From NCBI GenBank assembly GCA_026397175.1, contig JAPLVK010000013.1:8232-72231 (forward strand): a stretch of DNA of 64,000 nucleotides, in the 5' to 3' direction. Below are positions 9,635-63,941 of the stretch, piece by piece; within the stretch, counting starts at the first letter, position 1; every line of letters starts with the position of its first letter. Below the pieces are notes generated by a model, which was given only the letters and a program-made list of their open reading frames with translations, was not told where the DNA came from and did not search any database. Both the position numbers and the translations under genes were made by a program. The stretch comes from Candidatus Berkelbacteria bacterium (lineage in GTDB: Bacteria; Patescibacteriota; UBA1384; DTJR01).

Positions 9635-12406
9635 ATGAAAAATATAAAAATTACCGGTGCCAGAACACACAACCTTAAAAATATTTCTCTTGAAATTCCA
9701 AAAGAAAAAATTTCGGTCATAAGCGGAATTTCCGGCTCGGGAAAATCTTCTTTGGCGTTTGACACAATTTTTGCCGAAGGCCAAAGACGATATGTCGAAA
9801 ATTTATCTTCGTACGCAAAACAAATTATCGGCGTTATCGAAAAACCGGATGTGGATTCGATAGAAGGCATACCACCGGCTATTTCGATTGACCAAAAAAG
9901 TATTGCTCGCTCACCTCGCTCTACTGTCGGGACACTGACTGAAGGATATGATTATTTACGACTGATATATTCAAGGTTTGGGGAGGTTAGATGTCCATCT
10001 TGCCGAAAAGTAATTTCGGGCGGCTCAAGCAAAAAGGTAGTGGAGGACTCATTGGAATTTATTGAGTCCGTTGATTCAAAAGATAAAAATGTAAGAATTT
10101 TTGCTCCAATGATAAGTGGACTAAAAGGCCAGCATCAATTGGTTTTGGATAAACTCTCAAAGTCCAATTTTAAAGCAATTCGGATTGATTCAAACATTTA
10201 TAAACCATTTGAGATTAAGAACCTGAAACTAGAACAATCCGACCCCCACTCGATAGGGGTCTGGACTTTGGATAAGGACTTTACAAAGATGTCAGTGGAA
10301 AACATAAAGTTAATCGAAAAAGCGATCCTGTTAGCCCTTGATCTGTCTTCGGACACAGTGAAAATTTGTGTGAACAATGAAGAGAAGGCATTTTCTAGCC
10401 ACCCCGGTTGTTTAAAATGTCAAATCAGTTTTCCGCCAATTCAGCCAAGATTGTTTTCATTTAATAGTCCTTATGGCGCATGTACTAAATGCCAAGGGCT
10501 TGGAGTAATTAAAAAAGTCATTCCGAATCTTGTAATCCCAAATGCTCGGCTAACCTTATCCGAAGGAGCAATTAGGCCATGGGCTCGGCTGGCCGGACAA
10601 AACAGCTGGCTCACAAAAACCCTAAATTCATTAGCGCAAAGGAATAATTTTTCTCTAGACACGCCTGTTATGAATTTGGGTGAAAAGGCGTTAAGAGCGA
10701 TTTTGTATGGTGATGCTGAATTTGAAGGAGTGATTAAAAACTTAGAAAAAAAATACAAGGAAACGGACTCCGAATATCTAAGAGGCGAGATAGAGCAGTA
10801 CATGGTCGAGAAAATGTGCGAAAAATGCGAAGGAAAGCGCTTAAACGAATTTGCGCTTTCCGTAACATTTCTGAATAAAAAAATATATGAGCTTTCCGAT
10901 ATGGAAGCCCAAAAGTTAGTGGACTTTATTGAAAAAAATAAGGATAATCTTCCAAACGAATCAAATCAGGCCGTAAACGAGCTTTTAAAACGACTTAAGA
11001 ACTTAATCTCGGTAGGTTTAAGTTATCTTGCTCTGTCCAGAAGTAGCGAAACGCTCTCCGGCGGAGAAGCGCAAAGAATTCGCCTCGGTGTTCAGTTTGA
11101 CTCGTTTTTAAGTGGTGTTTTATATGTTTTGGATGAACCGACAATCGGTCTTCATAATCTTGATACCGAAAAAATGATACATGCCTTTAAAAAATTAAGA
11201 GATGAAGGAAACACGGTAATAATTGTCGAGCACGATAAAACTATCTTGGAATCAGCTGACTATATTTTTGATATGGGTCCGGGCGCTGGAAAAGATGGCG
11301 GTTATCTTATAGCCCAAGGATCACCCGAGGAAATAAAGAAAAATTCAAAATCGGTTACCGGCCCATATTTATCCGGCGAAAAAAATATTCCATACCCTAA
11401 AAAAAGAAGAAAAAAATCGGACTCATTTTTAAAAATAAGCGGCGCACGACATAATAATCTCAAAAATATTGATGTTGAAATTCCGCTTGGACAATTTGTC
11501 GCCGTTTCCGGTGTCTCGGGTTCTGGAAAATCATCTTTAATTTATGATGTACTGGCCAAGGCGCTAGCGCAAAAGTTAAATCGTTCGGAAGAGGAGCCGG
11601 GTGAATTTAAGGAAATTCTTGGGTTTGAAAATTTAAATAAAGTAATTAAAATTGATCAAACCCCGATCGGTAGAACTCCAAGAAGTAATTTGGCAACTTA
11701 TACAGGGATATTTACTCCGATCAGAGAACTTTTTGCCGCAACCAAAGAGGCAAAAAATCATGCTTTTAACGCCAGCCAGTTTAGCTTTAACCTAAAAGGT
11801 GGAAGATGCGAAACATGTCGTGGTGATGGAGTTATTAAAATCGAAATGTATTTTATGCCCGATGTTTATGTTCCTTGTGAGGAATGCAACGGAGAACGGT
11901 ATAATCGTGAAACATTGGATGTTAAGTTTCAAGGAAAGTCGGTTTCGCAGGTTTTAAAAATGAGCGTTGATGAGGCCTCGGATTTTTTTAATGACTTTCC
12001 TGATGTGATGGAGAAAATCACGGTTTTGCAAAAAGTCGGTCTTGGATATTTGCCGCTTGGCCAAAGCGCGACAACGCTGTCAGGTGGAGAAGCGCAAAGA
12101 ATAAAATTGGCCGCAGAGCTCTCGAGACCGTCAACCGGAAAAACCATATATATTTTAGATGAGCCGACAACGGGGTTACACTTTGAAGATATTGGGAAGC
12201 TTTTGGAAATTTTGCAAGAACTTGTCGAAAGGGGAAATACTGTTTTAATAATTGAACACAATACCGATGTTATTAAAAACGCCGATTGGGTTATAGATAT
12301 GGGACCGGAAGGCGGCGAAAAAGGCGGCGAAATTATTGCCGAAGGGACTCCCGAACAAATTGCCAAAAAACCCAAATCAACCATCGGAAAATTCTTAAAA
12401 TTTTAA
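9635..12406 (+). CDS. uvrA: excinuclease ABC subunit A
   Basis: two ABC modules ([28 protein letters not shown] twice) plus zinc-finger cysteines. Confidence 0.97.
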
Positions 12407-17245: not shown

Positions 17246-18763
17246 ATGGCAAAAAATACATCAGCAAATATAGGGTTTGAGGAAAAGCTTTGGGCGGCGG
17301 CAGATAAGATGCGCGGCAATATGGATCCAGCCGAATACAAGCATATTGTTTTAGGTCTTATTTTTTTGAAGTATATTTCGGACTCATTTGAATTGCTTCA
17401 CTCCAAAATTGAGAAAGAAGATGGGAGCGATGAAGCCGAGGACAAGGATTATTATACCGCCGAAAATACTTTCTGGGTGCCAAAAAAATCACGCTGGAAC
17501 TATATTCGTGATAATGCTCGCAAATCTGAAATTGGAAAAATCATTGACGACGCCATGTACGCGATCGAAAAAGAAAATCCTGACCTAAAGGGTGTTTTGC
17601 GCAAAGATTTTGCTCGACCGGCTCTCGACAAACAGCGGCTTGCGGGAGTTATTGATGTTATAAGCCAAGTTGACATGCAGGAAAATCAATCTCGCGATAT
17701 CATCGGCCGCATTTACGAGTATTTTCTTGGCAGATTTGCTGGTAGCGAAGGTAAGGGCGGGGGTGAATTTTATACTCCGCAATGTATAGTTAAACTGCTG
17801 GTAAATATGATTGAGCCATACAGCGGCCGTGTTTATGATCCGTGCTGTGGTAGCGGCGGCATGTTTGTTCAGGCAGAAATTTTCAACCAAAACAGCGAAG
17901 GCAGGAATGACGATTTAATCGTACTTGGTGAAGAGTCAAACCATACCACTTGGCAACTGTGCAAAATGAATCTCGCACTACATCATGTTGACAGTTCTAA
18001 AATAAAGTATGGAAATAGTTTTCACAGCGATCAACATCCAGACCTAAAAGCTGATTTTGTTCTGGCTAATCCGCCCTTCAACGATTCTGATTGGGATGGC
18101 CAGCTTTTGCGAAATGATGTTCGCTGGAAATATGGTGTGCCGCCAACTAGCAATGCAAACTATGCTTGGATGCAACATTTCATCCACCATTTATCGCCAA
18201 CCGGAATAGCCGGTTTCGTTATGGCGAACGGTGCAATGGCGGCGAACCAGTCCGGTGAGGGCGAAATCAGAAAGAATTTAATCAAGGCCGGCCTAGTTGA
18301 TTGTATGATAGCAATGCCAGACAAGCTTTTTTATAATGTACAAATTCCTTGCTCATTGTGGTTTCTGTCGCGCGATCGGTACGATCACAAATTCCGTAAC
18401 CGTCATGATGAAATTCTCTTTATCGATGCGCGAAAAATCGGCAAAATGGTTGACCGTCGACATCGCGAACTATCGGAAGAAGATATTAAAAAAATATCGG
18501 ATACATATCACAACTGGCGAAGTACAAGCGGTAAATATGAAGATATCAAAGGATTCTGCAAAGCCGCGAAAATAGAAGAGGTGGAGAAAAATGGTTTTGT
18601 CTTAACCCCCGGTCGCTATGTCGGCACCGAGCTCGTCGAGGAAGACGACGAAGTTTTTGAGGAAAAAATGAAGCGATTAACCACCGAACTTAACCAGCAG
18701 TTTGAGCAATCAAAAAGAATGGAAGAAAAAATTAGTGATATTTGGAATAAAATTGAATATTAA
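17246..18763 (+). CDS. hsdM: Type I restriction-modification methyltransferase subunit
   Basis: HsdM N-terminal domain; [10 protein letters not shown] (motif I); LANPPFN (motif IV). Confidence 0.95.
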
Positions 18764-22097: not shown

Positions 22098-22619
22098 ATG
22101 GACGAGAACCAGGCAGATCACACCCAAGGCTCTGCTATACAACCGGACTTTATTTCTGTTAAAAATTCCGGGGAAGAGACAAGCCCAGGAACTGAGAAAA
22201 ATATTGATAAAGTTATTGAGGACAAGGGTCCCGGGGGTTTTGTAATTGGCTTAGTTGATTCATTTGAGAAAAAATTTCCTACTGCCTTCTTTATTCTCGT
22301 GGTTGTAGGATATATTATTATCGAATCATTTGGTTCTCATAATATAAGAATTTACCAATACTCGGCAGTAATCTTGGTGAGCTTGATATTCTATTGTTTT
22401 TTAAAGTATTCGAGCGAAATTTTTGGTTGGTTTAGGCGGATTGGGTTAGAAGCAAAAAATAATCAAATAGCTACATATCTGGTCTCGTTTCTTGTTGTTG
22501 CGGTATTATGTATAGTATATTACTATTTCGGAACTCCGAAGTTATACTTTGAAAAGCGTCATAAGATTATCAATTCCGCTTGTGTGCAAACACAGCAATT
22601 TATTAAGGGGACTGAATGA
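22098..22619 (+). CDS. unknown small membrane protein (3-4 TM helices) embedded between hsdS and hsdR
   Basis: starts 2 nt after the previous stop; ATGA overlap with hsdR. Confidence 0.5.
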
Positions 22620-25600
22620 AATATACAGAATCAACATTAGAAGAAGCGACGAAGGAATGGTTTGAGGAATTGGGATACCAAACTATTTATGGGCCGGAGA
22701 TTGAGTCGGAAGCCGAAAAAGCCGAGCGGAAGGACTTTTCGCAAGTGGTTTTGGAAGGACGGCTAAAAAGTGCAATTGAAAAGCTAAATCCAAACATTCC
22801 AGCGGATGCAGTCGAAGAAGCATTTAAGAAAGTGGTTAATGTTACAAATGCTACTTCGCTTTTGATTTCGAACAATCAGCTTTTTCATAAATATTTGGTA
22901 AATGGAATTGATGTTGAGTATCGCCGAGACGATGGCACGATTGCTGGGGATAAAGTCTGGCTTATAGATAAAGAGAATATTGATAATAATGATTGGGTTT
23001 GGCTGGATCAGTTTACGGTAAAAGAGAACGAGATCCTGAAACAAGTTCAGGATGACACAAGGGTCAGGCGGCCGGATGTGGTGATATTTGTGAACGGTTT
23101 GCCACTCGCTGTTTTTGAACTCAAGAATTTGGCTGATGAAAATGTGGGGATCAAAGAAGCGTTCAATCAGTTTCAAACTTATAAAAACGATATTCCCTCG
23201 CTTTTTGCATATAGCGAACTTCTGGTAATTTCCGACGGGGCGGAAGCCAAAGTCGGCTCCATAACCTCGGATAATGATCGGTTTATGCGCTGGCGAAGTG
23301 TTGACGGCGCAGAATTAGCAAGCGATGCCGTGCCACAATTAGAAACTTTAATTAAAGGAGTGTTTGATAAAAAGCGCTTTCTGGACATTGTTTGTAATTT
23401 TATTGTTTTTAATACATTTAAAACCCCACTTCGCCAAGGTTACGCGGGGCAGGCATCCGGCGTAGAAAATATTGCCAAGATAGTACCGGCTTATCACCAG
23501 TATTTTGCAACAAACAAAGCCCTAGAAAGCACTATTCAGGCAACTGCAGATGATGGCGATCAGCGCGCCGGTGTGGTTTGGCACACACAGGGAAGCGGAA
23601 AGAGTTTAACTATGGCATTCTATGCCGGCAAGCTGATCCAAGCTTTGAAAAATCCGACGGTTGTTGTTTTGACTGATAGGAACGATTTGGACGATCAGCT
23701 TTTTGATACTTTTAGCAAGTGTTCCGACCTATTAAAACAAACACCTGTTCAAGCCAAGAACCGACGACACCTACGAGAGCTTCTGAAAGTAGCCAGTGGC
23801 GGGGTGGTATTTACTACCATTCAAAAGTTTTTGGACAAGGGTTTTCTGGAGAAAATGTTGTTAACTGATCGAAGAAATGCTGTAGTGATTGCCGATGAAG
23901 CCCACCGCAGCCAATATGATTTTATTGATGGCTATGCCAGAAGCATGAGAGAATCATTACCAAATGCTTCGTTTATTGGCTTTACGGGTACACCGATCGA
24001 GTTGTCCGACAAAAACACAAAGGCGGTTTTTGGCGGTTATGTCGATGTCTATGATATTTCCCAAGCTGTGGCCGATAAAGCAACCGTGCCGATATTTTAT
24101 GAAGCCAGATTGGCAAAAATTAATTTACTGGAAAGTGAAAAACCAAAAATTGATGCTGATTTCAATGATATTACTGAGGGCGAAGAAGTCGAAATGGTTG
24201 AGAAGCTCAAGAATAAATGGGCGCGACTTGAGGCGATGGTCGGTAGCGAAAAACGAATTAAACAAATTGCGCAGGATATTGTCGAACATTTCGAAAACCG
24301 GCTAGATGTGATGGATGGCAAGGGGATGATAGTTTCGATGAGTCGAAGAATTGCTGTTGAACTTTATGATGAAATTATTAAGCTTAGGCCGGATTGGCAT
24401 AACGATTCTGATAAAAAAGGTTTTATTAAAGTAATTATGACCGGTTCGGCCAGTGATCCATTGCCTTATCAAAAACATATTCGCAATAAAGAGTCTTTGC
24501 GCGAGATGGCAGATCGGATGAAAGATCCGAGCGATGAGTTGAAATTGGTAATTGTTCGGGACATGTGGCTGACAGGTTTTGATGTGCCAAGCATGCACAC
24601 AATGTACATAGATAAGCCGATGAAGGGTCATGGACTGATGCAGGCGATTGCTAGAGTTAATCGAGTTTATAAAGAGAAGCCGGGCGGTTTGGTTGTTGAC
24701 TATTTAGGCATTGCTCCGCAACTCAAGGAGGCCTTGGCTGAATATTCCGAAAACGATCAGGAAAACACGGCAATAGATCAGGAGAAAGCCGTTTCTGTCA
24801 TGCTTGAGAAATTCGAAGTTTTGCGAGGAATATTTCACGAGTTTGATTACGAGAGATATTTTAAGATGAAGCGATCTGACAAGACGAAATTTTTCGGTGA
24901 TGCTATGGATTTTGTTTTATCAATAGAGCCGGATAATGAAGAATCTAAAAAACGGTTTAATAAGGCAGTGGTTGAGCTATCAAAAGCCTTTGCTCTGGCA
25001 GTGCCGCACGAAAAAGCATTAAAGATTAAGGATCATGTCGGGTTTTTCCAGGCGTTAAAAGCATATGTTCGAAAAATTTCGCCTGTTTCCGGGCCGACTG
25101 AAGAAGATTATGATTTAGCCATCAAGCAAATTGTTTCAGATTCGATCGCATCCGGCGAAATAATCGATGTATTTAAGGCGGCTGGACTCGGTAAGCCAAA
25201 TGTTGAAATTCTCTCCGATGAATTTTTGGAGGAAGTGCGAGGGCTGGGCAGAAAAAATGTTGCTTTGGAAATATTAAAGAAGCTGCTGAATGATGAGATC
25301 AGATCGATTATGCGCAAGAATATGGTAAAAGGAAAATCATTTGCCGAGATGTTGGAAGCGACTCTGATTAAATATCAAAACCGAACAATAGAAGCGGCAC
25401 AGGTGATTGCCGATCTAATTGAACTGGCTAAAGAATTGAGAGGCGAAGTTAAGCGAGGAAAAGAGACGGGGCTGTCTGACGATGAAATTGCGTTTTACGA
25501 TGCTTTGGCCGAAAATGAGAGCGCAAAACTTGAGATTGGTGATGAAACGCTAAAAAAGATCGCCAAAGAGCTGGTTGTGATGATGCGAGAGAACGCGACG

Positions 25601-25759
25601 ATTGATTGGACATTGCGCGACGCAATTAAAGCAAGAATGAGAATCTATATTAAGAAATTGTTGAAAAAGTACGATTATCCGCCAGACAAACAGGAAGGCG
25701 CAACTCAGCTGGTTTTGTTGCAAGCCGAAACGATTGGAAAAGATTGGGGAGAAAAGTAA
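22616..25759 (+). CDS. hsdR: Type I restriction enzyme R subunit
   Basis: Walker A GSGKS; DEAH box [10 protein letters not shown]; overall HsdR architecture. Confidence 0.95.
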
Positions 25760-54520: not shown

Positions 54521-55228
54521 ATGAATATTTCTCCTCTGTATGAATTATTGATTTTCATCGAAGATCGCGGTTCGGTCTCAATTTCAGATATCCAAAAATG
54601 GGGCAAGGAGCTATCCAGGGGGATATTGGGTAAAATGGAAGCCATGAAATTAATCGATAAAAAAGAGACACCGGAAAAACAATACTCCCTTTCGGACTCT
54701 GGGCATAAGTTTCTAAATTCGGTCTTGGATACAATTCACAGGCCTGTGTTACACTGGGACTCAAAGTGGAGATTCGTTTGGTTTTCGATTCCGGAAAAGA
54801 CAAGATCAAAAAGAGACAAATTCAGGAGGTTTTTAGAGGGAATCGGTATGAAGCCAATCCTTAATAGTTTGTGGGTTGGAGCGATTGATCAAAAACAAAT
54901 AATTTTAAATGAAATTTCCAGATTGAATATCCAAGACAGAATATTATTTGTTGAAACGGAAAATCCGTCAGGGATATCCAAGAAAGATATATTAAATGGC
55001 TGGGATTTTGAAACTTCAAGATCGCATTACGAAGAATTTATCGTGAAATGTAATGAATATTTCCCGGATAGTTATAAAGATAGTTATAAAACCAAAAAAC
55101 TCATTTTCGAGTATGCTTTAATTTTAAACACAGAGCCAAATTTACCAATCGAACTCTTGCCTGATAACTGGCCGAAATTTAGAGCCCAACTTCAGTATAA
55201 AAAAATTAAAAGATTATTGGTTAAATAA
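54521..55228 (+). CDS. PaaX-family transcriptional regulator
   Basis: HWDSKWRFVWFSIPEKTRSKRDKFRR...LWVG signature. Confidence 0.55.
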   Translation: MNISPLYELLIFIEDRGSVSISDIQKWGKELSRGILGKMEAMKLIDKKETPEKQYSLSDSGHKFLNSVLDTIHRPVLHWDSKWRFVWFSIPEKTRSKRDKFRRFLEGIGMKPILNSLWVGAIDQKQIILNEISRLNIQDRILFVETENPSGISKKDILNGWDFETSRSHYEEFIVKCNEYFPDSYKDSYKTKKLIFEYALILNTEPNLPIELLPDNWPKFRAQLQYKKIKRLLVK

Positions 55229-55921
55229 TTTTTTTAAGGCCTCTTTTGCAGCTTCTTGTTCAGCGATATTTTTTGAGCTTCCACTCCCTTTTGCTATCTC
55301 ATCGTTATCTACAATCACAGTGCTCGTGAACTCTTTGTCGTGGTCCGGCCCCAATTCACTAATAACTTTATAATGGGGCGTTACCTTAAATTTTTCTTGA
55401 ACTTTTTCCTGAAAATTGCTTTTAGCGTCAACATAAAGTTTCTCGTCGATCACTTTTTCTATATCAATCGCAATATTTTTTATAATAAAATTTCTGGTAG
55501 CTTCAATGCCCTGATCTAGGTATATAGCCCCTATAATTGCTTCAAGAGCATTGGCCAAAATTAGTCCTTTAGCTTTTTCGGATGAATTTCTTTCGCCTCT
55601 GCTTAAATACAAACAGTCGTAAACCCCCAATCCTTCTGAAGTTAGTGCTAGATTTCTGCCTCTAACCAAAGCACTCCGAAGTGCGGTAAGCTCTCCTTCC
55701 GGTTTTTCAAACCTGTTATACAGATATTCTGTAATGATTAGCTCTAGTACGGCATCGCCTAAAAACTCTAACCGTTCATTGTTTTTTAGATTCATTCTAG
55801 AGTTTTCATTTAAATATGATCTATGCACAAAAGCATTAACCAATATGTCAAAATTATTAAATTTTAGCTCATTGGCTTTTGCGAATTTTTCAATTTTTGT
55901 TTTATTTTTGTCTTCGTTCAT
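55214..55921 (-). CDS. rnc: ribonuclease III
   Basis: [13 protein letters not shown] signature plus a C-terminal dsRBD. Confidence 0.92.
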
Positions 55922-56598: not shown

Positions 56599-59457
56599 TT
56601 AAACTACAAAATTAATTAGTTTTTTTTCAACAAAAATTATCTTCTTTATTTTATCTCTTTTTACCTCAAATGCAATTTTTTTCTGACCTAGCACTAAATT
56701 CTCAATCTCTTTTCGGTCTAAATTTTTGTTTATTTCCAACACCGCTTTTCTTTTACCGTTTATCTGGACAACAAGGTTGTAATTTTGTTGTTCGATATTT
56801 TGCGCCTCTGGCCACAAGCTTGAAAAAATCGAGTTTGAATTTGAGTTTTCTAGCCATAATTTTTCCGATAGATGCGGCGCAAAAGGGGATAGTAGTTTAA
56901 GAAAAACATCCCACTGCTCTTTATTCATTTTGGTTAACTCAACGGTTTTAGCAAACTTCATAAAATCCGAGACCGCGGTGTTGAATAGTGACTTTTCAAT
57001 TTTTTGAGTAATTAAATTAATTAATTGAGAAAGATTCGTACCTATTGTTTCGTCTTTTTTGTTATTTTTTTCAAAGCTCAAACAAACATTCTCCAAAAAT
57101 CTAGAAACACCCGTTATTCCGTTTTTTGCCCAGACGGCCGGTTGATCAAAAGGGCCAATGAACATTTCGTACATCCTTAAAGAGTCAGCACCAAATTGTC
57201 CAATTATTTCTTCCGGACTTATTACATTTCCTCTGGACTTTGACATCTTCTGGCGATCTGGCGCCAATATCAGGCCAACATTTTTTAGCTTTTTAAATGG
57301 CTCTTTAAAATTTACAACTTTTAAATCAAATAAAAATTTATGCCAAAATCTTGCGTAAAGTAGATGTAACACTGCGTGTTCCGCTCCACCAATATACAAA
57401 TCAATCGGAGAAAAGTACTTATCCGCTTCATTTGAGATTAATTTATTGTCGTTCTTGGGATCTGTGAAACGAAGGTAATACCAGCACGAGCCGGCCCATT
57501 GCGGCATTGTATCGGTTTCTCTTTTGGCTTCGCTCCCACATTTGGGGCACTTTGTATTTACCCAACTTTCAACTCTACTTAACGGGGAGGTTCCATCGCC
57601 CGAGGGCTCATAATTTTCAATTTCCGGTAACTTAACTGGCAACTGGTCTTCCGGAACCGCAACGACGCCCTGCCCCGAGGGGTCTCGAAGGGCACATTTT
57701 TTGCAGTGAACAATTGGGATTGGTTCGCCCCAATAGCGTTGTCTGGAAAATACCCAGTCGCGAAGTTTGTAATTGATCGCAAAATCTCCGTGGCCTGATT
57801 TTCTTAGTTTTTCGGTTATTTTTCTTTTGGCAGTTTCGGAATCTGATCCATTAAAACTGTTTGAGTTGATTAGAATTCCGTGATCTTCAAAAGCATTTTC
57901 CGGATTACTAAATCGATCAAGCCAAATATTAAATTCGGAGCATTTAAGATTTCCGTCATTTTTTATTTCCTCCCAGGTTTTCCAAACGAGCTGATGAATT
58001 GCCGATTCCTTATCGCTTATCTGATCCTTTTCTTCATCAAGTAATTCAAATACCAATGCTTGGAAGTGGGCTTTGCGATTTTCCTTTTTGTGATTAGCAT
58101 AAAAATTTGAATCAACCAGCCCACCAAGTTTCCGAATAAATTTAAGATTTTTATAGCCTGTTTCCTCGTAGATTTCTCTTTTTGCTGCTTCAGTTGCGTC
58201 TTCGCCATCATCGATTCCGCCGGTGATAAAAGTGGTCCAAGGCTGTTTCTGCCAACATAATGTCAGAATTTTATTATTATTTGGATTGATTACAATTGCC
58301 TGAATTGCATTTCTAAAAACCACCGGCTCGTCGGGCTTTGGCGGATCTATCGGATCGGTTACAGTCGGAATAACTACTTCTTTGATCAGTAAATTATATT
58401 TCTTGGCAAATTCAAAATCGCGCTGGTCATGTGCGGGGACGGCCATTACGGCACCAGTACCATAATGAGCTAGCACATAATCGGCAATCCAAACTGGCAC
58501 CTCTTTTCCATTAATTGGATTGACTGCCCTTAAACCCCTTAACTCGACACCGGTTTTTTCTTTCGCCAGTTCTGTCCGTTCCAAATCAGATTTATTTTTT
58601 GATTTTTCAATATATTCCTTGACTTCATTCAGATTTTCGATTTTGGATTCCAATTGCTTTACTAAATCATTTTCCGGCGCCAGCACAACCCAAGTGCAAC
58701 CAAAAAGAGTGTCGGCCCGAGTTGTATAAACCTTGATTTGTAATTTGGAATTAGAAATTTGAAATTTGATTTCACTACCCTCTGACCGGCCGATCCAATT
58801 TTTTTGCATCTCCTTTATGGGTTCGGGCCAATCAAGATCTTCCAAATCATTTAATAGTCGATCCGCATAATCGGTTATTTTTAAAATCCATTGTTTCAAA
58901 TTCTTGCGTTCAACTTTGGTATGACATCGTTCGCATTCTCCGGACTGGACTTCTTCGTTTGCCAAACCGGTTTTGCATGACGGGCAAAAATTAATTGGAA
59001 TTTCATCTTGGTAGGCGAGACCTTTTTCAAAAAGTTTTATAAAAATCCACTGCGTCCATTTGTAATATTCCGGATCGGTTGTGTTGATTTCCCTAGACCA
59101 ATCATAGGAAAATCCCAAGGACTGCAATTGACCTTTAAACTTTGCAATATTTTGGGCGACAACTTCTTTGGGATTCTTCTTGATTTTTATGGCATAATTT
59201 TCGGCCGGAAGACCAAACGCATCCCAACCCATGGGATGTAAAACATTAAAACCCTTCATCCGCATATAGTTTGCGACGATGTCTGTCGCGGTATAACCCT
59301 TGATGTGGCCAACATGTAAACCATCGCCGGAAGGATAGGGGAACATATCAAGTACATAAAATTTCTTACGGCTTGAGTCATTTTTTGTCTCAAAGACCTT
59401 GCTTTTTGCCCAAAAATCTTGGGAGTTCTTTTCTATTTTTTTAAAATCATATTTCAT
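56599..59457 (-). CDS. leuS: leucyl-tRNA synthetase with a NUDIX-hydrolase domain inserted after the CP1 editing-domain core
   Basis: HVGH (HIGH) motif, TRADT, HDQRD, KMSKS; perfect Nudix box GGIDDGEDATEAAKREIYEETGY at residues 413-435. Confidence 0.95.
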   Translation of the reverse strand: MKYDFKKIEKNSQDFWAKSKVFETKNDSSRKKFYVLDMFPYPSGDGLHVGHIKGYTATDIVANYMRMKGFNVLHPMGWDAFGLPAENYAIKIKKNPKEVVAQNIAKFKGQLQSLGFSYDWSREINTTDPEYYKWTQWIFIKLFEKGLAYQDEIPINFCPSCKTGLANEEVQSGECERCHTKVERKNLKQWILKITDYADRLLNDLEDLDWPEPIKEMQKNWIGRSEGSEIKFQISNSKLQIKVYTTRADTLFGCTWVVLAPENDLVKQLESKIENLNEVKEYIEKSKNKSDLERTELAKEKTGVELRGLRAVNPINGKEVPVWIADYVLAHYGTGAVMAVPAHDQRDFEFAKKYNLLIKEVVIPTVTDPIDPPKPDEPVVFRNAIQAIVINPNNNKILTLCWQKQPWTTFITGGIDDGEDATEAAKREIYEETGYKNLKFIRKLGGLVDSNFYANHKKENRKAHFQALVFELLDEEKDQISDKESAIHQLVWKTWEEIKNDGNLKCSEFNIWLDRFSNPENAFEDHGILINSNSFNGSDSETAKRKITEKLRKSGHGDFAINYKLRDWVFSRQRYWGEPIPIVHCKKCALRDPSGQGVVAVPEDQLPVKLPEIENYEPSGDGTSPLSRVESWVNTKCPKCGSEAKRETDTMPQWAGSCWYYLRFTDPKNDNKLISNEADKYFSPIDLYIGGAEHAVLHLLYARFWHKFLFDLKVVNFKEPFKKLKNVGLILAPDRQKMSKSRGNVISPEEIIGQFGADSLRMYEMFIGPFDQPAVWAKNGITGVSRFLENVCLSFEKNNKKDETIGTNLSQLINLITQKIEKSLFNTAVSDFMKFAKTVELTKMNKEQWDVFLKLLSPFAPHLSEKLWLENSNSNSIFSSLWPEAQNIEQQNYNLVVQINGKRKAVLEINKNLDRKEIENLVLGQKKIAFEVKRDKIKKIIFVEKKLINFVV

Positions 59458-59652: not shown

Positions 59653-61209
59653 TCAGTTAATGGGCGAATTATCAATGTTTTGATCGGCTAAAATTATGCT
59701 TTTGGCAAAATATTCTGGAATGTCAAAGCCACCCAGTTCGAGACAGGTTGAGGCAATGTTCTCAAGACGACCGGTAATATCTAATTGAATTTTTGTATTT
59801 TCAGAAACCAGAATAATTGGGACAGGATTTTTGGTATGTTCCGTGTCGGGCTGACCAGTTAATGGGTCAACCATTTGCTCTATATTTCCATGGTCTGCTG
59901 TGATAATCAATGGTATATTTTCGTCAATACATACCTTTGATATCTCTTTCACCATGTTATCTAGTGTTCCAACTGCCTCTAGCGCCGCCTTGAAATCGCC
60001 GGTATGCCCAACCATGTCTGCGTTTGCCAGATTACAAAGATATAATGAATAATCTTCTTTTTTAATCCTTTGAACAAGCTCGTCCTTTACTTCGTTTGCC
60101 GACATTTCCGGCTTTAAAGCGTACGATCGTACATCGGGAGAGGGGATCAAGATTCTATCTTCGCCCCGATATGGTTCGTTTCTATTACCATTAATAAAAA
60201 AAGTTACATGAGCGTATTTTTCTGTTTCAGCAATATGAAATTGTTTTAAATTTAAAAGTGAGAAATATTCGCCGATTGTATTAGCAATAGAAATTGTTTT
60301 AAACGCCGCTTTCGCCTCAATTCCCAGCTCGCGCTCTATTCCATACGGGATAAAAGTTATAAAGTCCAAGTTCTCAAGTTGCCTCCTTTTAAACTTGTCG
60401 AATTTTGGATCAAGAAATGCCTGCATTAACTGTCTGGTTCTGTCCGACCTAAAGTTAAAAAAGATTATGGTGTCGTTGTTTTTTATTCTGCTTGTGTTTT
60501 TAATGATAATAGGGGATATAAACTCATCTGATTCACCATTTTTATATGCTTTGGAGATAGACGACAGCGCATTTTCCTCAATCAAACCCTTTCCATCAAC
60601 AAGCGCTTCGTAGGCCTTTTGTGTTTTTTGCCAATTTCCTTTGCGATCCAATAGGTCTCGCCCTATAATAGTTGCTATTTGCCCACAACCAAGCGCTTTT
60701 GTTGCTTGCGTTACCTGACTTAAATATTCAATTCCTTGATATGGCGGAGTGTCGCGACCATCTGTAAATGCATGGATATTGACATCTTTATGCCCAAGAT
60801 TTGAGCACATTTTAATTAGGGCCAAAAGATGGACGATGTGTGAATGAACTCCACCATCAGACACGATTCCCATCAAATGCACAGATGAATTTTGTTCTTT
60901 TGATCTTTTGATCGAATCAACCAATGTCTTATTCTCATAAAAACTGCCATCGGATATTGATTGATTTATATGTGAGATATCCTGTTCGACAATATTGCCG
61001 GCGCCAATGTTCATATGGCCCACTTCGGAGTTTCCAACCTCATGACCAGGAAGGCCAACATCGCGCCCAGAGGCCTTTAAGATTGTATTGGGATACTCTC
61101 TTAGGATTTTGTTATAATTTGGCGTTTCGGCGACCGTGATCGCATTTCCACCCCAACTTTTGCCGACACCCCAACCATCGAGAATTAGTAAAACAACGGA
61201 ATTTTTCAT
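59653..61209 (-). CDS. gpmI: 2,3-bisphosphoglycerate-independent phosphoglycerate mutase, copy 1
   Basis: ILDGWG, GNSEVGH (catalytic Ser), ADHGN motifs. Confidence 0.9.
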   Translation of the reverse strand: MKNSVVLLILDGWGVGKSWGGNAITVAETPNYNKILREYPNTILKASGRDVGLPGHEVGNSEVGHMNIGAGNIVEQDISHINQSISDGSFYENKTLVDSIKRSKEQNSSVHLMGIVSDGGVHSHIVHLLALIKMCSNLGHKDVNIHAFTDGRDTPPYQGIEYLSQVTQATKALGCGQIATIIGRDLLDRKGNWQKTQKAYEALVDGKGLIEENALSSISKAYKNGESDEFISPIIIKNTSRIKNNDTIIFFNFRSDRTRQLMQAFLDPKFDKFKRRQLENLDFITFIPYGIERELGIEAKAAFKTISIANTIGEYFSLLNLKQFHIAETEKYAHVTFFINGNRNEPYRGEDRILIPSPDVRSYALKPEMSANEVKDELVQRIKKEDYSLYLCNLANADMVGHTGDFKAALEAVGTLDNMVKEISKVCIDENIPLIITADHGNIEQMVDPLTGQPDTEHTKNPVPIILVSENTKIQLDITGRLENIASTCLELGGFDIPEYFAKSIILADQNIDNSPIN

Positions 61210-61210
61210 A

Positions 61211-62782
61211 TTAGCTTAAGGACTCTTTTAAATTTACTCCGGTCATCTCCGGAGCCGTTTGAACTCCCAGTGAATCGCAAATTGTTGGGGCAACATCGGC
61301 AAGCAATCCAACCGGTTCCATATTGGCTGTTTCGACTTTAGATTTAAATTTCCCTTTTGTTTGCTCCGAAATACACATAAATGGAACGGGATTCAATGAA
61401 TGTTCCTTACTCGGCTTTCCGCTTTTTAGATCTATCATCTCATCACAGTTGCCGTGATCGGCGACTATAAATATTTCGTATTCACTTTCCAAAAGCACAG
61501 GGACTATTTGTGATAATGATTGATCAATGATTTCAACCGTTTTAATCGTTGCATCAAGATTTCCCGAATGACCGACCATATCACCGTTGGCGTAGTTTGC
61601 AACAATAAAATCATAATTTTCTTTTACCGCCTCGATGATTGCGTCAGAAATTTCTTTCGCCCGCATTTGCGGGAATAGATCGTACGATTTCACTTTTTCG
61701 GAATTAATTAATTTATTTACTTGTCCATCAAGCTCACCTTTCACCCCACCTGCAAAAAAATATGTAACATGAGCAAACTTTTCGGTTTCAGCAACATGAA
61801 ATTGTTTCTTTCCTTGTTTCGAAATAATTTGAGACAAGGAGTTTAACAGGGGATTGATTTCAGGATCATTTAAATCGATATTGCTGAATAAAACCTTAAC
61901 GCCCAAATTATCATCATAGGTTGTCATTGTCAGAAAATTTGATGCGATTTTATCCCTTTTTACATCTTTTAGTCCTTGATCAACAAACGCTCTGGTAAGT
62001 TGAATCGCTCGATCGGATCGGTAATTAAGGAATAAAAACACATCGTTTTCTAAACTTATATTCAGATCACCATTTAATGATACCGGCTCTATAAATTCAT
62101 CTGTTTTATTGTCAGTGTACGATCGTGCAACAATATCCTTTGGCGATCCTTCTGTCGGTTTCTTTCCCAATATTGCGTCATAGGCAGACGATATTCTATC
62201 CCAGTTTTTATCTCTATCCATGGCAAAATATCTTCCCATAATCGAACCGATGACCGCGATATTTTTCAACTCTTTTTCAATCTGACCCAAATACCTTTCG
62301 ATTGATTTTTCCTGAACATCTCTTCCATCTGCAATTAAGTGCAAAATTATCTTATTTGATGGGCAGAGTTGATTAAATATTTTTGCCATTTGGATCATAT
62401 GGTTAATATGTCCATGGACCCCACCGTCTGACGCAATGCCGATCAAATTAATGTTTGATTTTTTGTCATTTAATATTTTGACTGCGTCAAGAACAGCTTG
62501 TTTCTGAGGAATTGTGCTATCGGCAATTGCTTTATCAATTTGTGGGAGATCTTGTAGGACTACGCGGCCCAATCCAAGAGAGGAATGACCGACTTCCGAA
62601 TTACCAAATTCTCCCCACGGCAAACCAACTTCTTCGGCCGATGCCTTTAGGAGTGTCTTGGGATATGTCTCAAACAGCTCATCAATATAAGGTGTTTTTG
62701 CAAGAAATACCGCGTTTCCTTTTTTTTCTTTTGCTATACCAAAACCATCCAATATGATTAGCGCAACTTTCTCGCTAGCCAT
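61211..62782 (-). CDS. iPGM paralog, copy 2 (tandem, diverged, motifs intact)
   Basis: ILDGFG, GNSEVGH, ADHGN motifs. Confidence 0.88.
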   Translation of the reverse strand: MASEKVALIILDGFGIAKEKKGNAVFLAKTPYIDELFETYPKTLLKASAEEVGLPWGEFGNSEVGHSSLGLGRVVLQDLPQIDKAIADSTIPQKQAVLDAVKILNDKKSNINLIGIASDGGVHGHINHMIQMAKIFNQLCPSNKIILHLIADGRDVQEKSIERYLGQIEKELKNIAVIGSIMGRYFAMDRDKNWDRISSAYDAILGKKPTEGSPKDIVARSYTDNKTDEFIEPVSLNGDLNISLENDVFLFLNYRSDRAIQLTRAFVDQGLKDVKRDKIASNFLTMTTYDDNLGVKVLFSNIDLNDPEINPLLNSLSQIISKQGKKQFHVAETEKFAHVTYFFAGGVKGELDGQVNKLINSEKVKSYDLFPQMRAKEISDAIIEAVKENYDFIVANYANGDMVGHSGNLDATIKTVEIIDQSLSQIVPVLLESEYEIFIVADHGNCDEMIDLKSGKPSKEHSLNPVPFMCISEQTKGKFKSKVETANMEPVGLLADVAPTICDSLGVQTAPEMTGVNLKESLS

Positions 62783-63941
62783 TTTTTATCTCCTCTTCGA
62801 TGCGAAGTAAACGGTTATATTTAGCAACCCTTTCTCCTCTTGATGGTGCTCCAAATTTACAAAATTCCGCTTGCACTCCAACGGCAAAATCGGCGATAAA
62901 TGTATCTTCGGTTTCTCCGGATCTATGGGAAACGACGAGTTTTAGTCCACTCTGCTTCGCAAGATTTGAAAAGGCGATTGAGTCGGAAATTGTCCCGATT
63001 TGATTCGGTTTAACGATAACCGCATTGACTGCTTTCTTCTCTACCGCTTCTTTCAAAAGCTCCATATTGGTTGCCAGAAGATCGTCTCCGACAATCATTA
63101 TTTTTGATCCAATCTTCTGCATCATCTGCACCCAGCCATCCCAATTATCTTCTTCAACAGGATCTTCCATGCTAATAACAGGATATTTCGAGACAATCTC
63201 CTCCAGATTCATATTATTTGGAACAACACCCGCAAGATCTAGTCCCATGTTAATTTTTTCAGCTTCCTGAATTAAACGGATAGCATCCTCATCGGATGGT
63301 AATTGTGGAGCAAAACCGCCCTCGTGCCCGACGGCAATGTTTAAATTTCTGTCCTTCAAGATCTTTCTTAGCTTATGGAACACTTCGGACGCCTTGCGAT
63401 AATTTTCTTTAAAACTTTCTTGTTCCGGAATAACCAAAAACTCTTGAATTACTAGGTTATTATCGGCGTGTTTTGCCCCTTCGATAAAGTTAAACATCGC
63501 TCTTGGCATAGCGACAATTTGCGATTGCGCCATCTCGGCAATATATTTATAGAGGGGCATTTTTTTTGAATCAGCCGCCGCTTTAGCGCAAGCGAGCGAA
63601 ACCGCCAGAATCGCGTTAGCGCCAAGCTTGCTTTTGTGCGGAGTTCCATCGAGTTGACTCATTGTGTCGTCAATTGCTTTTTGTTGAGTTACATCTTGAC
63701 CGGAAAGCGCGCTTGCGATTGTGCTATTCACATTTTCGACTGCTTTTAGTACACCCATTCCGCCAAAGCGCGCCTCGTCGCCATCGCGCAGCTCTATCAC
63801 TTCATGAGCCCCAACCGAAGCGCCGCTTGGAACGGATGCGATTGTTTTGATATGATTTTGCGTTTCGACTTCAACTTCGACTGTCGGATCACCGCGAGAA
63901 TCCAAAATTTCTCGGGCTTTAATTGAAACAATGTTTTCCAC
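62775..63941 (-). CDS. eno: enolase
   Basis: N-terminus IKAREILDSRGDPTVEV; conserved catalytic residues; SD AAGGAGG. Confidence 0.96.
   Translation of the reverse strand: MENIVSIKAREILDSRGDPTVEVEVETQNHIKTIASVPSGASVGAHEVIELRDGDEARFGGMGVLKAVENVNSTIASALSGQDVTQQKAIDDTMSQLDGTPHKSKLGANAILAVSLACAKAAADSKKMPLYKYIAEMAQSQIVAMPRAMFNFIEGAKHADNNLVIQEFLVIPEQESFKENYRKASEVFHKLRKILKDRNLNIAVGHEGGFAPQLPSDEDAIRLIQEAEKINMGLDLAGVVPNNMNLEEIVSKYPVISMEDPVEEDNWDGWVQMMQKIGSKIMIVGDDLLATNMELLKEAVEKKAVNAVIVKPNQIGTISDSIAFSNLAKQSGLKLVVSHRSGETEDTFIADFAVGVQAEFCKFGAPSRGERVAKYNRLLRIEEEIKNG

Follow-up and report, generated by a model that had tools for sequence, protein, structure and literature searches.

LeuRS, the leucyl-tRNA synthetase, is a drug target and belongs to the best-studied enzymes. 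The bacterial LeuRS from Thermus thermophilus (1H3N/2BYT) and Escherichia coli (4AQ7) are composed of a catalytic body with the HIGH and KMSKS signatures, an editing site in CP1, and anticodon-binding and C-terminal domains, all of which are also present in the LeuRS considered here, the product of leuS on a 64-kb stretch of DNA (the window, which is the whole stretch that was analysed) from a Candidatus Berkelbacteria-like genome of the candidate phyla radiation (CPR). The window LeuRS differs from 1H3N in that it has an additional enzyme domain of 151 amino acids (aa) within CP1, a Nudix domain, and in that it is devoid of the leucine-specific domain. To our knowledge, the CP1 editing domain is regarded as an insert and not as a host for further domains. 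A domain-insertion survey from 2026 (PMC13114784) recorded the editing domain PF13603 exclusively in the role of an insert, in no case in that of a host.

The Nudix fold, the full Nudix box and an aromatic residue behind the box are shared by the inserted domain and the group of RppH and the hydrolases of diadenosine polyphosphates (ApnA). Members of this group are RppH from E. coli (4S2W), Ndx1 from T. thermophilus (1VC8; diadenosine hexaphosphate, Ap6A), aq_158 from Aquifex aeolicus (3I7U; diadenosine tetraphosphate, Ap4A), CT771 from Chlamydia trachomatis (4MPO; an Ap4A-ase) and Rv2985 from Mycobacterium tuberculosis (9CXX). It should be noted, however, that the window domain is 12–22% identical to these proteins, has a signature of its own and is embedded in synthetases, which they are not. 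The sequence F-Y-x-N-H after the box is shared with a MutT/nudix protein from Enterococcus faecalis known from structural genomics (2AZW), which is 22% identical to the window domain, free-standing and uncharacterised and is therefore of no help with respect to function.

An enzyme domain added to a class I synthetase of the isoleucine/leucine/valine group is also the ground on which NCBI curators maintain a model of its own, NF040702 in NCBIfam (isoleucine--tRNA ligase, N-acetyltransferase domain-containing), which the window LeuRS matches weakly. There, however, the added domain is of the GNAT type and the host is a different synthetase, and NCBIfam contains no curated model for a LeuRS with a Nudix domain. 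In eukaryotes, the Ap4A-making synthetase LysRS is paired with NUDT2, a Nudix enzyme that destroys Ap4A, the two being separate proteins, whereas in the prokaryotic case described here both activities would share one polypeptide, the host being either LeuRS or prolyl-tRNA synthetase (ProRS). LeuRS-Nudix proteins are already present in public databases with automatic Pfam hits; full-text literature searches turned up no paper on a synthetase with a Nudix insert, the closest being the domain-insertion survey cited above, although such a paper may still exist. Each of the two components belongs to a textbook family. What is new, and apparently unpublished, is the architecture, its conservation over a large part of the CPR, its presence in LeuRS and ProRS of DPANN archaea and the exchange of the cassette. 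The interpretation that we tentatively prefer, with slightly less than even confidence, is that the insert is an active Nudix enzyme forming a third site in CP1, that its substrate is of the ApnA class and that it works independently of editing.

A complete Nudix domain nested in CP1

The insertion in the window LeuRS is a complete Nudix domain located in a short surface loop of CP1, the order of nesting being Rossmann body, CP1, Nudix. In the alignment with T. thermophilus LeuRS 1H3N (E = 6e-209), residues 2–370 of the window protein correspond to residues 3–369 and residues 520–733 to residues 374–580. Thus about 149 residues stand in for a 4-residue loop (T. thermophilus 370–373) late in CP1, the insertion site being about 20 residues past the catalytic Asp of the editing site. 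The boundaries were taken from insert-less LeuRS (among them P0035, P0042, P0048 and P0060), and the sequences flanking the insert are VVIP and FSNPENAFEDHG. The gene and the insert have the following features (coordinates in the window):

56599–59457, minus strand: leuS, encoding a bacterial-type LeuRS of 952 aa; a single continuous open reading frame (ORF) with no stop codon or frameshift
57913–58365, minus strand: inserted module, residues 365–515 (151 aa), built from linker, Nudix fold and C-terminal helix; seen as a gap in the nearest insert-less LeuRS
57964–58314, minus strand: match to Pfam NUDIX (PF00293), residues 382–498; E = 9.5e-15, 55.2 bits at a gathering score of 21.1
58153–58221, minus strand: Nudix box GX5EX7REUXEEXGU, GGIDDGEDATEAAKREIYEETGY, residues 413–435; a perfect match to the pattern
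58075–58092, minus strand: subfamily signature HK(x2)NR, residues 456–461; recognised by its conservation across inserts

Three tests place the insert in the Nudix superfamily: the perfect box, the Pfam score above gathering and the fold, an alpha/beta/alpha sandwich in which the box lies on a loop-helix-loop. The NUDIX match interrupts the PF13603 model of the editing domain, of which profile positions 1–145 end at residue 367. The full box pattern is found once in the six-frame translation of the window and not at all in 200 shuffles of the window. When the insert was modelled alone with AlphaFold2 (predicted local distance difference test, pLDDT, 94.2; predicted template-modelling score, pTM, 0.86), a beta-grasp/alpha Nudix topology was obtained with the strands and helices in the order of the Nudix fold and with a helix at insert residues 50–62 that spans the REx2EE segment. 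In the model of the whole window LeuRS (pLDDT 89.3, pTM 0.80) the Nudix segment has a pLDDT of 90–96. A Foldseek search of the PDB with the model of the insert yielded 521 matches at E ≤ 1e-3, in which Nudix structures had a probability of 1.0 and template-modelling (TM) scores up to 0.74.

The domain had first been noticed from the letters of the DNA alone, and this original prediction of a Nudix domain inside LeuS within CP1 was borne out by Pfam, by the fold model and by the fold search. It had given the region as 57898–58326, which is residues 378–520 of the single ORF, and the translation agrees with the text quoted then; the extra residues, estimated at about 145, are 151, and at the N-terminal end the boundary was off by no more than about 13 residues. 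The perfect Nudix box lies exactly where it had been placed. The alignments to LeuS and Nudix models proposed at the time gave 1017 bits with TIGR00396 (leuS_bact; cut-off 548.4), of which the window LeuRS is thus a member, and the above 55.2 bits with PF00293, and the proposed structure model gave the confident Nudix fold.

The contig comes from a metagenome-assembled genome (MAG), and the only identical public protein is N-terminally truncated, which could point to a chimera of the assembly, an artefact of annotation or a motif that arose by chance. This explanation is effectively refuted by the continuous ORF, the native G+C content (0.37 in the insert, 0.38 in the gene), the lack of any match in the shuffles and the occurrence of the same architecture in over 100 cluster representatives, which are independent of each other and stem from many different assemblies and sources. 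The public protein in question (P0009 at NCBI, 574 aa, "class I tRNA ligase family protein", Candidatus Berkelbacteria) starts with the GTG codon of V379 in the first strand of the Nudix domain and covers residues 379–952 (window 56599–58323). With this start at the Nudix domain, the public annotation seems to have cut short or divided what is one continuous gene of 952 aa. A practical consequence is that such LeuRS-Nudix genes are mis-called by automated annotation.

Outside the insert the window LeuRS has the following features, for which conservation refers to 77 aligned LeuRS:

59305–59316, minus strand: class I HIGH signature, here HVGH, residues 48–51; invariant
57235–57249, minus strand: class I KMSKS signature, residues 737–741; M738, S739 and K740 invariant
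58699–58725, minus strand: T-rich editing-site motif TTRADTLFG, residues 245–253; from sequence and conservation, T245, T246, R247, D249 and T250 being invariant
58417–58461, minus strand: editing-site segment with the GTG loop and the conserved Asp, GTGAVMAVPAHDQRD, residues 333–347; from sequence and conservation, G333, G335, H343, D344, R346 and D347 (GTG...HDQRD) being invariant
58357–58803, minus strand: N-terminal four-fifths of the CP1 editing domain, residues 219–367; PF13603 profile positions 1–145
57754–57912, minus strand: rest of CP1 and return to the catalytic body, residues 516–568, FSNPENAFEDHGILINSNSFNG...YKLRDW; aligns with T. thermophilus LeuRS from residue 374 onwards and with insert-less relatives

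The motifs for synthesis and editing are intact, and the rest of the enzyme looks fully functional. The leucine-specific domain, which in T. thermophilus comprises residues 581–636 approximately and precedes KMSKS, has no counterpart around residues 733–737 of the window LeuRS. Eight extra residues, ALRDPSGQ, are found in the zinc-knuckle-like region at about 589–596.

Conservation, distribution and exchange of the insert

Among the 120 LeuRS most similar to that of the window, with identities of 50–64%, the majority carry PF00293 at the same loop. Carriers with a taxon name are Berkelbacteria, Paceibacterota, Pacebacteria, Parcubacteria or Patescibacteria, and the closest 120 relatives apparently all belong to the Patescibacteria/CPR (here and below the taxon labels of MAGs are used as given, except for two archaeal loci that were checked by gene context). 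This survey of orthologues, which had been suggested with the original prediction, also qualifies the description of the fusion as unusual: it is unusual when compared with textbook LeuRS, whereas among CPR LeuRS it is the majority state and not peculiar to this genome.

In 65 aligned homologous inserts the residues of the box are conserved as follows: G413 97%, E419 89%, R427 92%, E428 95%, E431 94%, E432 95% and G434 95%, and every catalytic box residue is kept in about 90% of the inserts. The idea that the segment might be ordinary CP1 sequence with a box by chance is not upheld by this conservation of the Glu, Arg and Gly residues (89–97%) at a mean identity of about 44%. The mean pairwise identity is 0.44 for the insert versus 0.60 for the LeuRS core. 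Beyond the box the inserts have a signature consisting of R382, W402, W407, H456-K457-x2-N460-R461, E484, H488 and W492, in which K457 is conserved to 95% and N460 and R461 to 92% each. The Lys and the Arg of the signature are invariant across LeuRS inserts and free-standing proteins and are present also in the copies embedded in ProRS.

A search with the insert profile of 1.84 billion cluster representatives yielded 139 proteins at E ≤ 1e-30. When the best 148 were classified by motifs, 109 were found to be LeuRS or LeuRS fragments, to which five further fragments were added by Pfam, and about 30 to be free-standing proteins of 126–250 aa with the same signature. The gene neighbourhoods of two free-standing homologues held nothing informative and no RNA-related context. 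A fragment of 379 aa (P0131) is made up entirely of Nudix domains of this subfamily in tandem, at least three copies, with no synthetase sequence in the recovered part.

In a scan of GTDB with one genome per species, LeuRS with the embedded domain turned up in MAGs of Saccharibacteria, Taylorbacteria, Parcubacteria, Paceibacter and other Patescibacteria, in MAGs labelled Pacearchaeota and Woesearchaeota, and, with binning as labelled, in MAGs assigned to Bacilli, Gammaproteobacteria and Methanosarcinales. The two archaeal loci, L016:2831-5764 (Pacearchaeota MAG) and L019:2306-5629 (Woesearchaeota MAG), encode bacterial-type LeuRS with a Nudix insert, and on both a gene for an archaeal tRNA-splicing endonuclease lies upstream of the LeuRS gene, from which it follows that the loci are genuinely archaeal. 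The presence of a bacterial-type LeuRS-Nudix on archaeal contigs implies inter-domain transfer between CPR and DPANN. The LeuRS of L019 also holds a Ser_hydrolase domain. Judged by its sequences, the Nudix subfamily is uncharacterised and confined mainly to the ultra-small bacteria of the CPR and to DPANN archaea, and no named Nudix family corresponds to it.

The loop behaves like a site for exchangeable cassettes, which is occupied by one type of Nudix domain, by a second type, by an unknown domain or by nothing. In a neighbour-joining tree of the LeuRS core (the LeuRS trees are distance-based and comprise about 120 sequences) the Nudix insert is found in almost every branch of the sampled radiation, and the subclade of the window LeuRS is a patchwork of proteins with a Nudix insert, proteins without an insert (about 796 aa, 65–68% core identity) and proteins with an unrelated domain of 119–128 aa at the loop, which has no Pfam match and no Nudix features. 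The unrelated domain is itself conserved, e.g., in P0024, P0025, P0032, P0049 and P0079 (128 aa) and in P0028 and P0047 (124 aa), whose core identity is 66–69%.

The similarities of core and insert are almost uncorrelated (Spearman −0.02, Mantel r 0.15). The window insert is 63–68% identical to inserts whose LeuRS cores are only 53–58% identical, whereas the core-closest LeuRS (68–70%) contain a different Nudix subtype, marked by KMHG in place of PWTT and by RVKxxNRWAHF in place of HKxxNR, which is only 43–48% identical to the insert of the window. In a sliding-window comparison the window protein is much nearer to the core-closest group outside of residues 361–540 approximately (0.80–0.95 versus 0.51–0.67 in the catalytic body) and nearer to the insert-similar group inside (0.52–0.74 versus 0.25–0.55). 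The sharp switch in similarity indicates that, in a LeuRS lineage of fairly recent date, recombination has replaced or exchanged the cassette one or more times. A single ancient and purely vertical insertion is rejected because the similarities of insert and core are essentially uncorrelated.

An origin of the insert from a mobile element was considered and rejected. Pfam shows only NUDIX in the insert and no Hint or endonuclease domain, and the flanking repeats, as looked for in the case of an intein or another self-mobile element, are short and at chance level. Phage genomes contain no close relative of the insert, the only match being a weak one in a Burkholderia phage, and the matches in IMG/VR viral contigs are generic Nudix matches at the level of the box.

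Insertions in CPR LeuRS cluster at four loops, which lie after residues ~207, 234, 365 and 597 of the window LeuRS, and mosaics reach sizes of up to about 1,560–1,735 aa. Further hydrolases occupy the loops after ~207, 234 and 597: a Ham1/ITPase domain in P0076 (245–381), a HAD phosphatase in P0018 (998–1150) and a Ser_hydrolase-type alpha/beta hydrolase in P0057 and P0102 (~244–434) and in P0011. Nudix copies of the same subfamily number up to three per LeuRS (P0011, P0018, P0125). These findings are also what would be expected if the insert were a generalist pyrophosphatase for house-cleaning, acting on damaged or non-canonical (deoxy)nucleoside triphosphates or on NDP-X (nucleoside diphosphates linked to a further group X) without any link to LeuRS. 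The CP1 loop would then be a permissive site, and fusion to an essential, constitutive gene would secure expression in streamlined genomes with little regulation. The clustering of the insertions, the free-standing members of the subfamily, the repeated loss or replacement among close LeuRS relatives and the decoupling of the history of the insert from that of the core are likewise in its favour. However, about three quarters of the best representatives of the subfamily are found inside LeuRS, whereas random hitch-hiking should spread them over many hosts, and the fold neighbours of the insert lean to RppH and the ApnA-ases over MutT. A house-cleaning function without a link to the host is the chief alternative to the interpretation preferred above and is rated as somewhat less probable.

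Also difficult to reconcile with mere hitch-hiking is the occurrence of the same subfamily in ProRS, a class II enzyme unrelated to LeuRS. The ProRS P0257, which matches the subfamily profile with E = 4.5e-31, has a Nudix domain at residues ~394–521, placed by Pfam behind the anticodon-binding domain and ahead of the ProRS C-terminal domain. Altogether five ProRS clusters with Nudix were found (P0257 and P0273–P0276), all of the DPANN type, and relatives of the Nanoarchaeota/Woesearchaeota type of about 485 aa are without it. The ProRS inserts share the subfamily signature. Of their five boxes, one is intact, another has K in place of R and three are partly degenerate. That two unrelated synthetases have independently taken up the same subfamily is the strongest evidence obtained for a connection with synthetase chemistry and argues against chance hitch-hiking.

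Probable catalysis and possible substrate of the Nudix domain

From the conserved box residues it is highly probable that the insert is catalytic. A different role, as a structural or regulatory module that senses Ap4A, ppGpp or ADP-ribose and modulates the movement of CP1, or that provides a surface for protein interaction, would be in line with the mobility of the CP1 domain, with an unrelated domain of about 120 aa filling the same loop in LeuRS of the P0024 type and with substitutions in the box (E to S or Q, or RE to ME) in the LeuRS P0056, P0108, P0121 and P0124 and also in ProRS copies. However, the retention of all metal-binding and catalytic residues of the box in about 90% of the inserts at about 44% identity is the pattern of an active enzyme, which makes a non-catalytic module improbable.

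The substrate cannot be read from homology, since no named family reaches its cut-off and since the scores obtained in the PDB do not exceed 33 bits. The nearest fold is that of 2AZW (Foldseek E = 7.6e-9, TM 0.74), which is also the top match by sequence (E = 0.002); other near folds (TM 0.64–0.73) are those of RppH (0.73), Rv2985/MutT1, Ndx1, aq_158 and CT771. The upper ranks of the Foldseek matches are rich in ApnA-ases and RppH, but the E-values of these are barely apart from those of other Nudix classes. The best match in NCBIfam is to RppH models (PRK00714), which at 33.4 bits versus cut-offs of 116–259 does not make the insert an RppH, and the models for RppH and YtkD are the top, albeit weak, matches in all 18 members of the subfamily that were tested. 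The models for the MutT 8-oxo-dGTPase (TIGR00586/NF008044) are matched weakly in 2–5 of the 18 members (best E ~1e-4), far under the cut-off, and the domain is thus not assigned to that family.

The similarity to RppH, which from E. coli is one of the top structural neighbours, together with the 18 of 18 matches and with the fact that both hosts bind RNA, could mean that the insert is an RppH-like pyrophosphohydrolase that is tethered to an RNA-binding synthetase and that strips triphosphates or Np4A or NAD caps from the 5′-ends of RNA. However, 33 bits are far from cut-offs of at least 116, and the surroundings of the two free-standing copies considered offered no informative RNA-related gene. 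Mature tRNAs have a 5′-monophosphate after the action of RNase P, and the bound tRNA is therefore not a substrate. An activity on RNA ends is thus quite unlikely.

A hint comes from the residues behind the box. A Tyr 16–18 residues after the box is said to mark ApnA hydrolases, a rule that goes back, reportedly, to Dunn et al. in 1999, and a Pro at position +16 is, by a rule ascribed to the Bessman laboratory, said to mark ADP-ribose pyrophosphatases. The window domain has the aromatic pair F452/Y453 at +17/+18; among the inserts position +17 is F in 69% and Y in 26% and position +18 is F in 48% and Y in 35%, so that both are aromatic without being Tyr throughout. At +16 (residue 451) the window has N and the homologues have E, H, N or V, in no case Pro, which is not what is expected of an ADP-ribose pyrophosphatase. 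By these rules the pattern would lean toward the ApnA hydrolases and away from the ADP-ribose pyrophosphatases. The conserved basic residues R382, K403, H456, K457, R461 and H488 would suit a polyphosphate chain.

Aminoacyl-tRNA synthetases are an established cellular source of Ap4A. In the mechanism that we prefer, the Nudix domain would be a third active site of LeuRS, apart from those for aminoacylation and post-transfer editing, and would catalyse the Mg2+-dependent cleavage of a pyrophosphate bond in a polyphosphorylated nucleotide. Its preferred substrates would be dinucleoside polyphosphates such as Ap4A, diadenosine triphosphate (Ap3A) and dinucleoside tetraphosphates (Np4N), all of which arise when ATP or another nucleoside triphosphate attacks the aminoacyl-adenylate on the synthetase, and the Nudix domain would destroy this by-product or alarmone in the place where it is made. 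Its independence of aminoacylation and editing is probable; that ApnA are the preferred substrates is a more tentative proposal, for which we would claim clearly less than even confidence. The clearing of Ap4A is a best guess, which finds some support in the ProRS fusion and in the RppH/ApnA-hydrolase-like fold.

The location of the Nudix domain, which lies within the editing domain some 20 residues past the catalytic Asp, and the fact that ProRS, too, misactivates near-cognate amino acids might suggest instead that it helps in proofreading by hydrolysing the non-cognate aminoacyl-adenylate (pre-transfer editing) or mischarged tRNALeu. However, the aminoacyl-adenylate is an acyl-phosphate and the aminoacyl-tRNA an ester, neither of which has the pyrophosphate bond that Nudix enzymes cleave, and a direct role in editing is therefore without support and chemically unlikely. 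The canonical editing site is fully conserved and hence needs no replacement, and the insert is dispensable in close relatives. All this makes a proofreading helper very improbable.

Several findings weigh against an ApnA-directed third site. The Nudix domain is dispensable, as there are LeuRS with 65–68% core identity without it or with an unrelated domain in its place, and free-standing copies of the subfamily exist. These facts and the Ham1, HAD and alpha/beta hydrolases in other LeuRS loops agree with generic house-cleaning enzymes no less than with a role tied to synthetases. Substitutions in the box occur in about 10% of the LeuRS inserts and in 3–4 of the five ProRS inserts, and at residue 452 Phe is commoner than Tyr. 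The Foldseek E-values of ApnA-ases, RppH, MutT-like proteins and ADP-ribose pyrophosphatases lie within less than 100-fold of each other, no Nudix family of NCBIfam reaches its cut-off, and of the sequence and profile searches of the PDB, with their maximum of 33 bits, the profile search gives only about 30 bits with 3I7U and 1F3Y.

A more far-reaching proposal is that CPR and DPANN synthetases in general are platforms for exchangeable hydrolase cassettes and that the Nudix cassette is coupled to its host, destroying Ap4A/Np4N or a related adenylate by-product in cis, as an inbuilt check on the level of the alarmone or by-product, and replacing separate enzymes of the ApaH, YqeK or NUDT2 type. 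This proposal we regard as doubtful.

Neighbouring genes and possible meaning of the fusion

Directly upstream of leuS in the window are two tandem paralogues of cofactor-independent phosphoglycerate mutase (59653–61209 and 61211–62782, minus strand, 36% identical), which are adjoined by an enolase gene (62775–63941), the ORF of which has 8 nucleotides in common with the second mutase gene. Elsewhere in the window, genes for the type I restriction-modification proteins HsdM and HsdR (17246–18763 and 22616–25759) and for UvrA (9635–12406) lie upstream of an rpoB/rpoC-ribosomal protein cluster, and the G+C content falls to 0.35 around 18–22 kb. The cumulative GC skew climbs steadily between about 8 and about 54 kb and reverses at the latter point, exactly where the genes switch from the plus to the minus strand. 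The switch in orientation takes place at the convergent genes for a PaaX-like protein (54521–55228) and RNase III (55214–55921), which overlap by 15 nucleotides. The turnover of the skew could be a landmark of replication or a mere result of gene strand bias.

If the Nudix site of the LeuRS-Nudix fusion is active, as is probable, a new catalytic activity would be present on a core enzyme of translation across a large part of bacterial diversity, the same subfamily being found also in LeuRS and ProRS of DPANN archaea. The fusion would offer a testable handle on the old question of whether and how cells couple the dinucleoside polyphosphates made by synthetases to their removal. And it would mean that streamlined symbionts gather enzyme cassettes at defined loops of their essential genes and swap them there.

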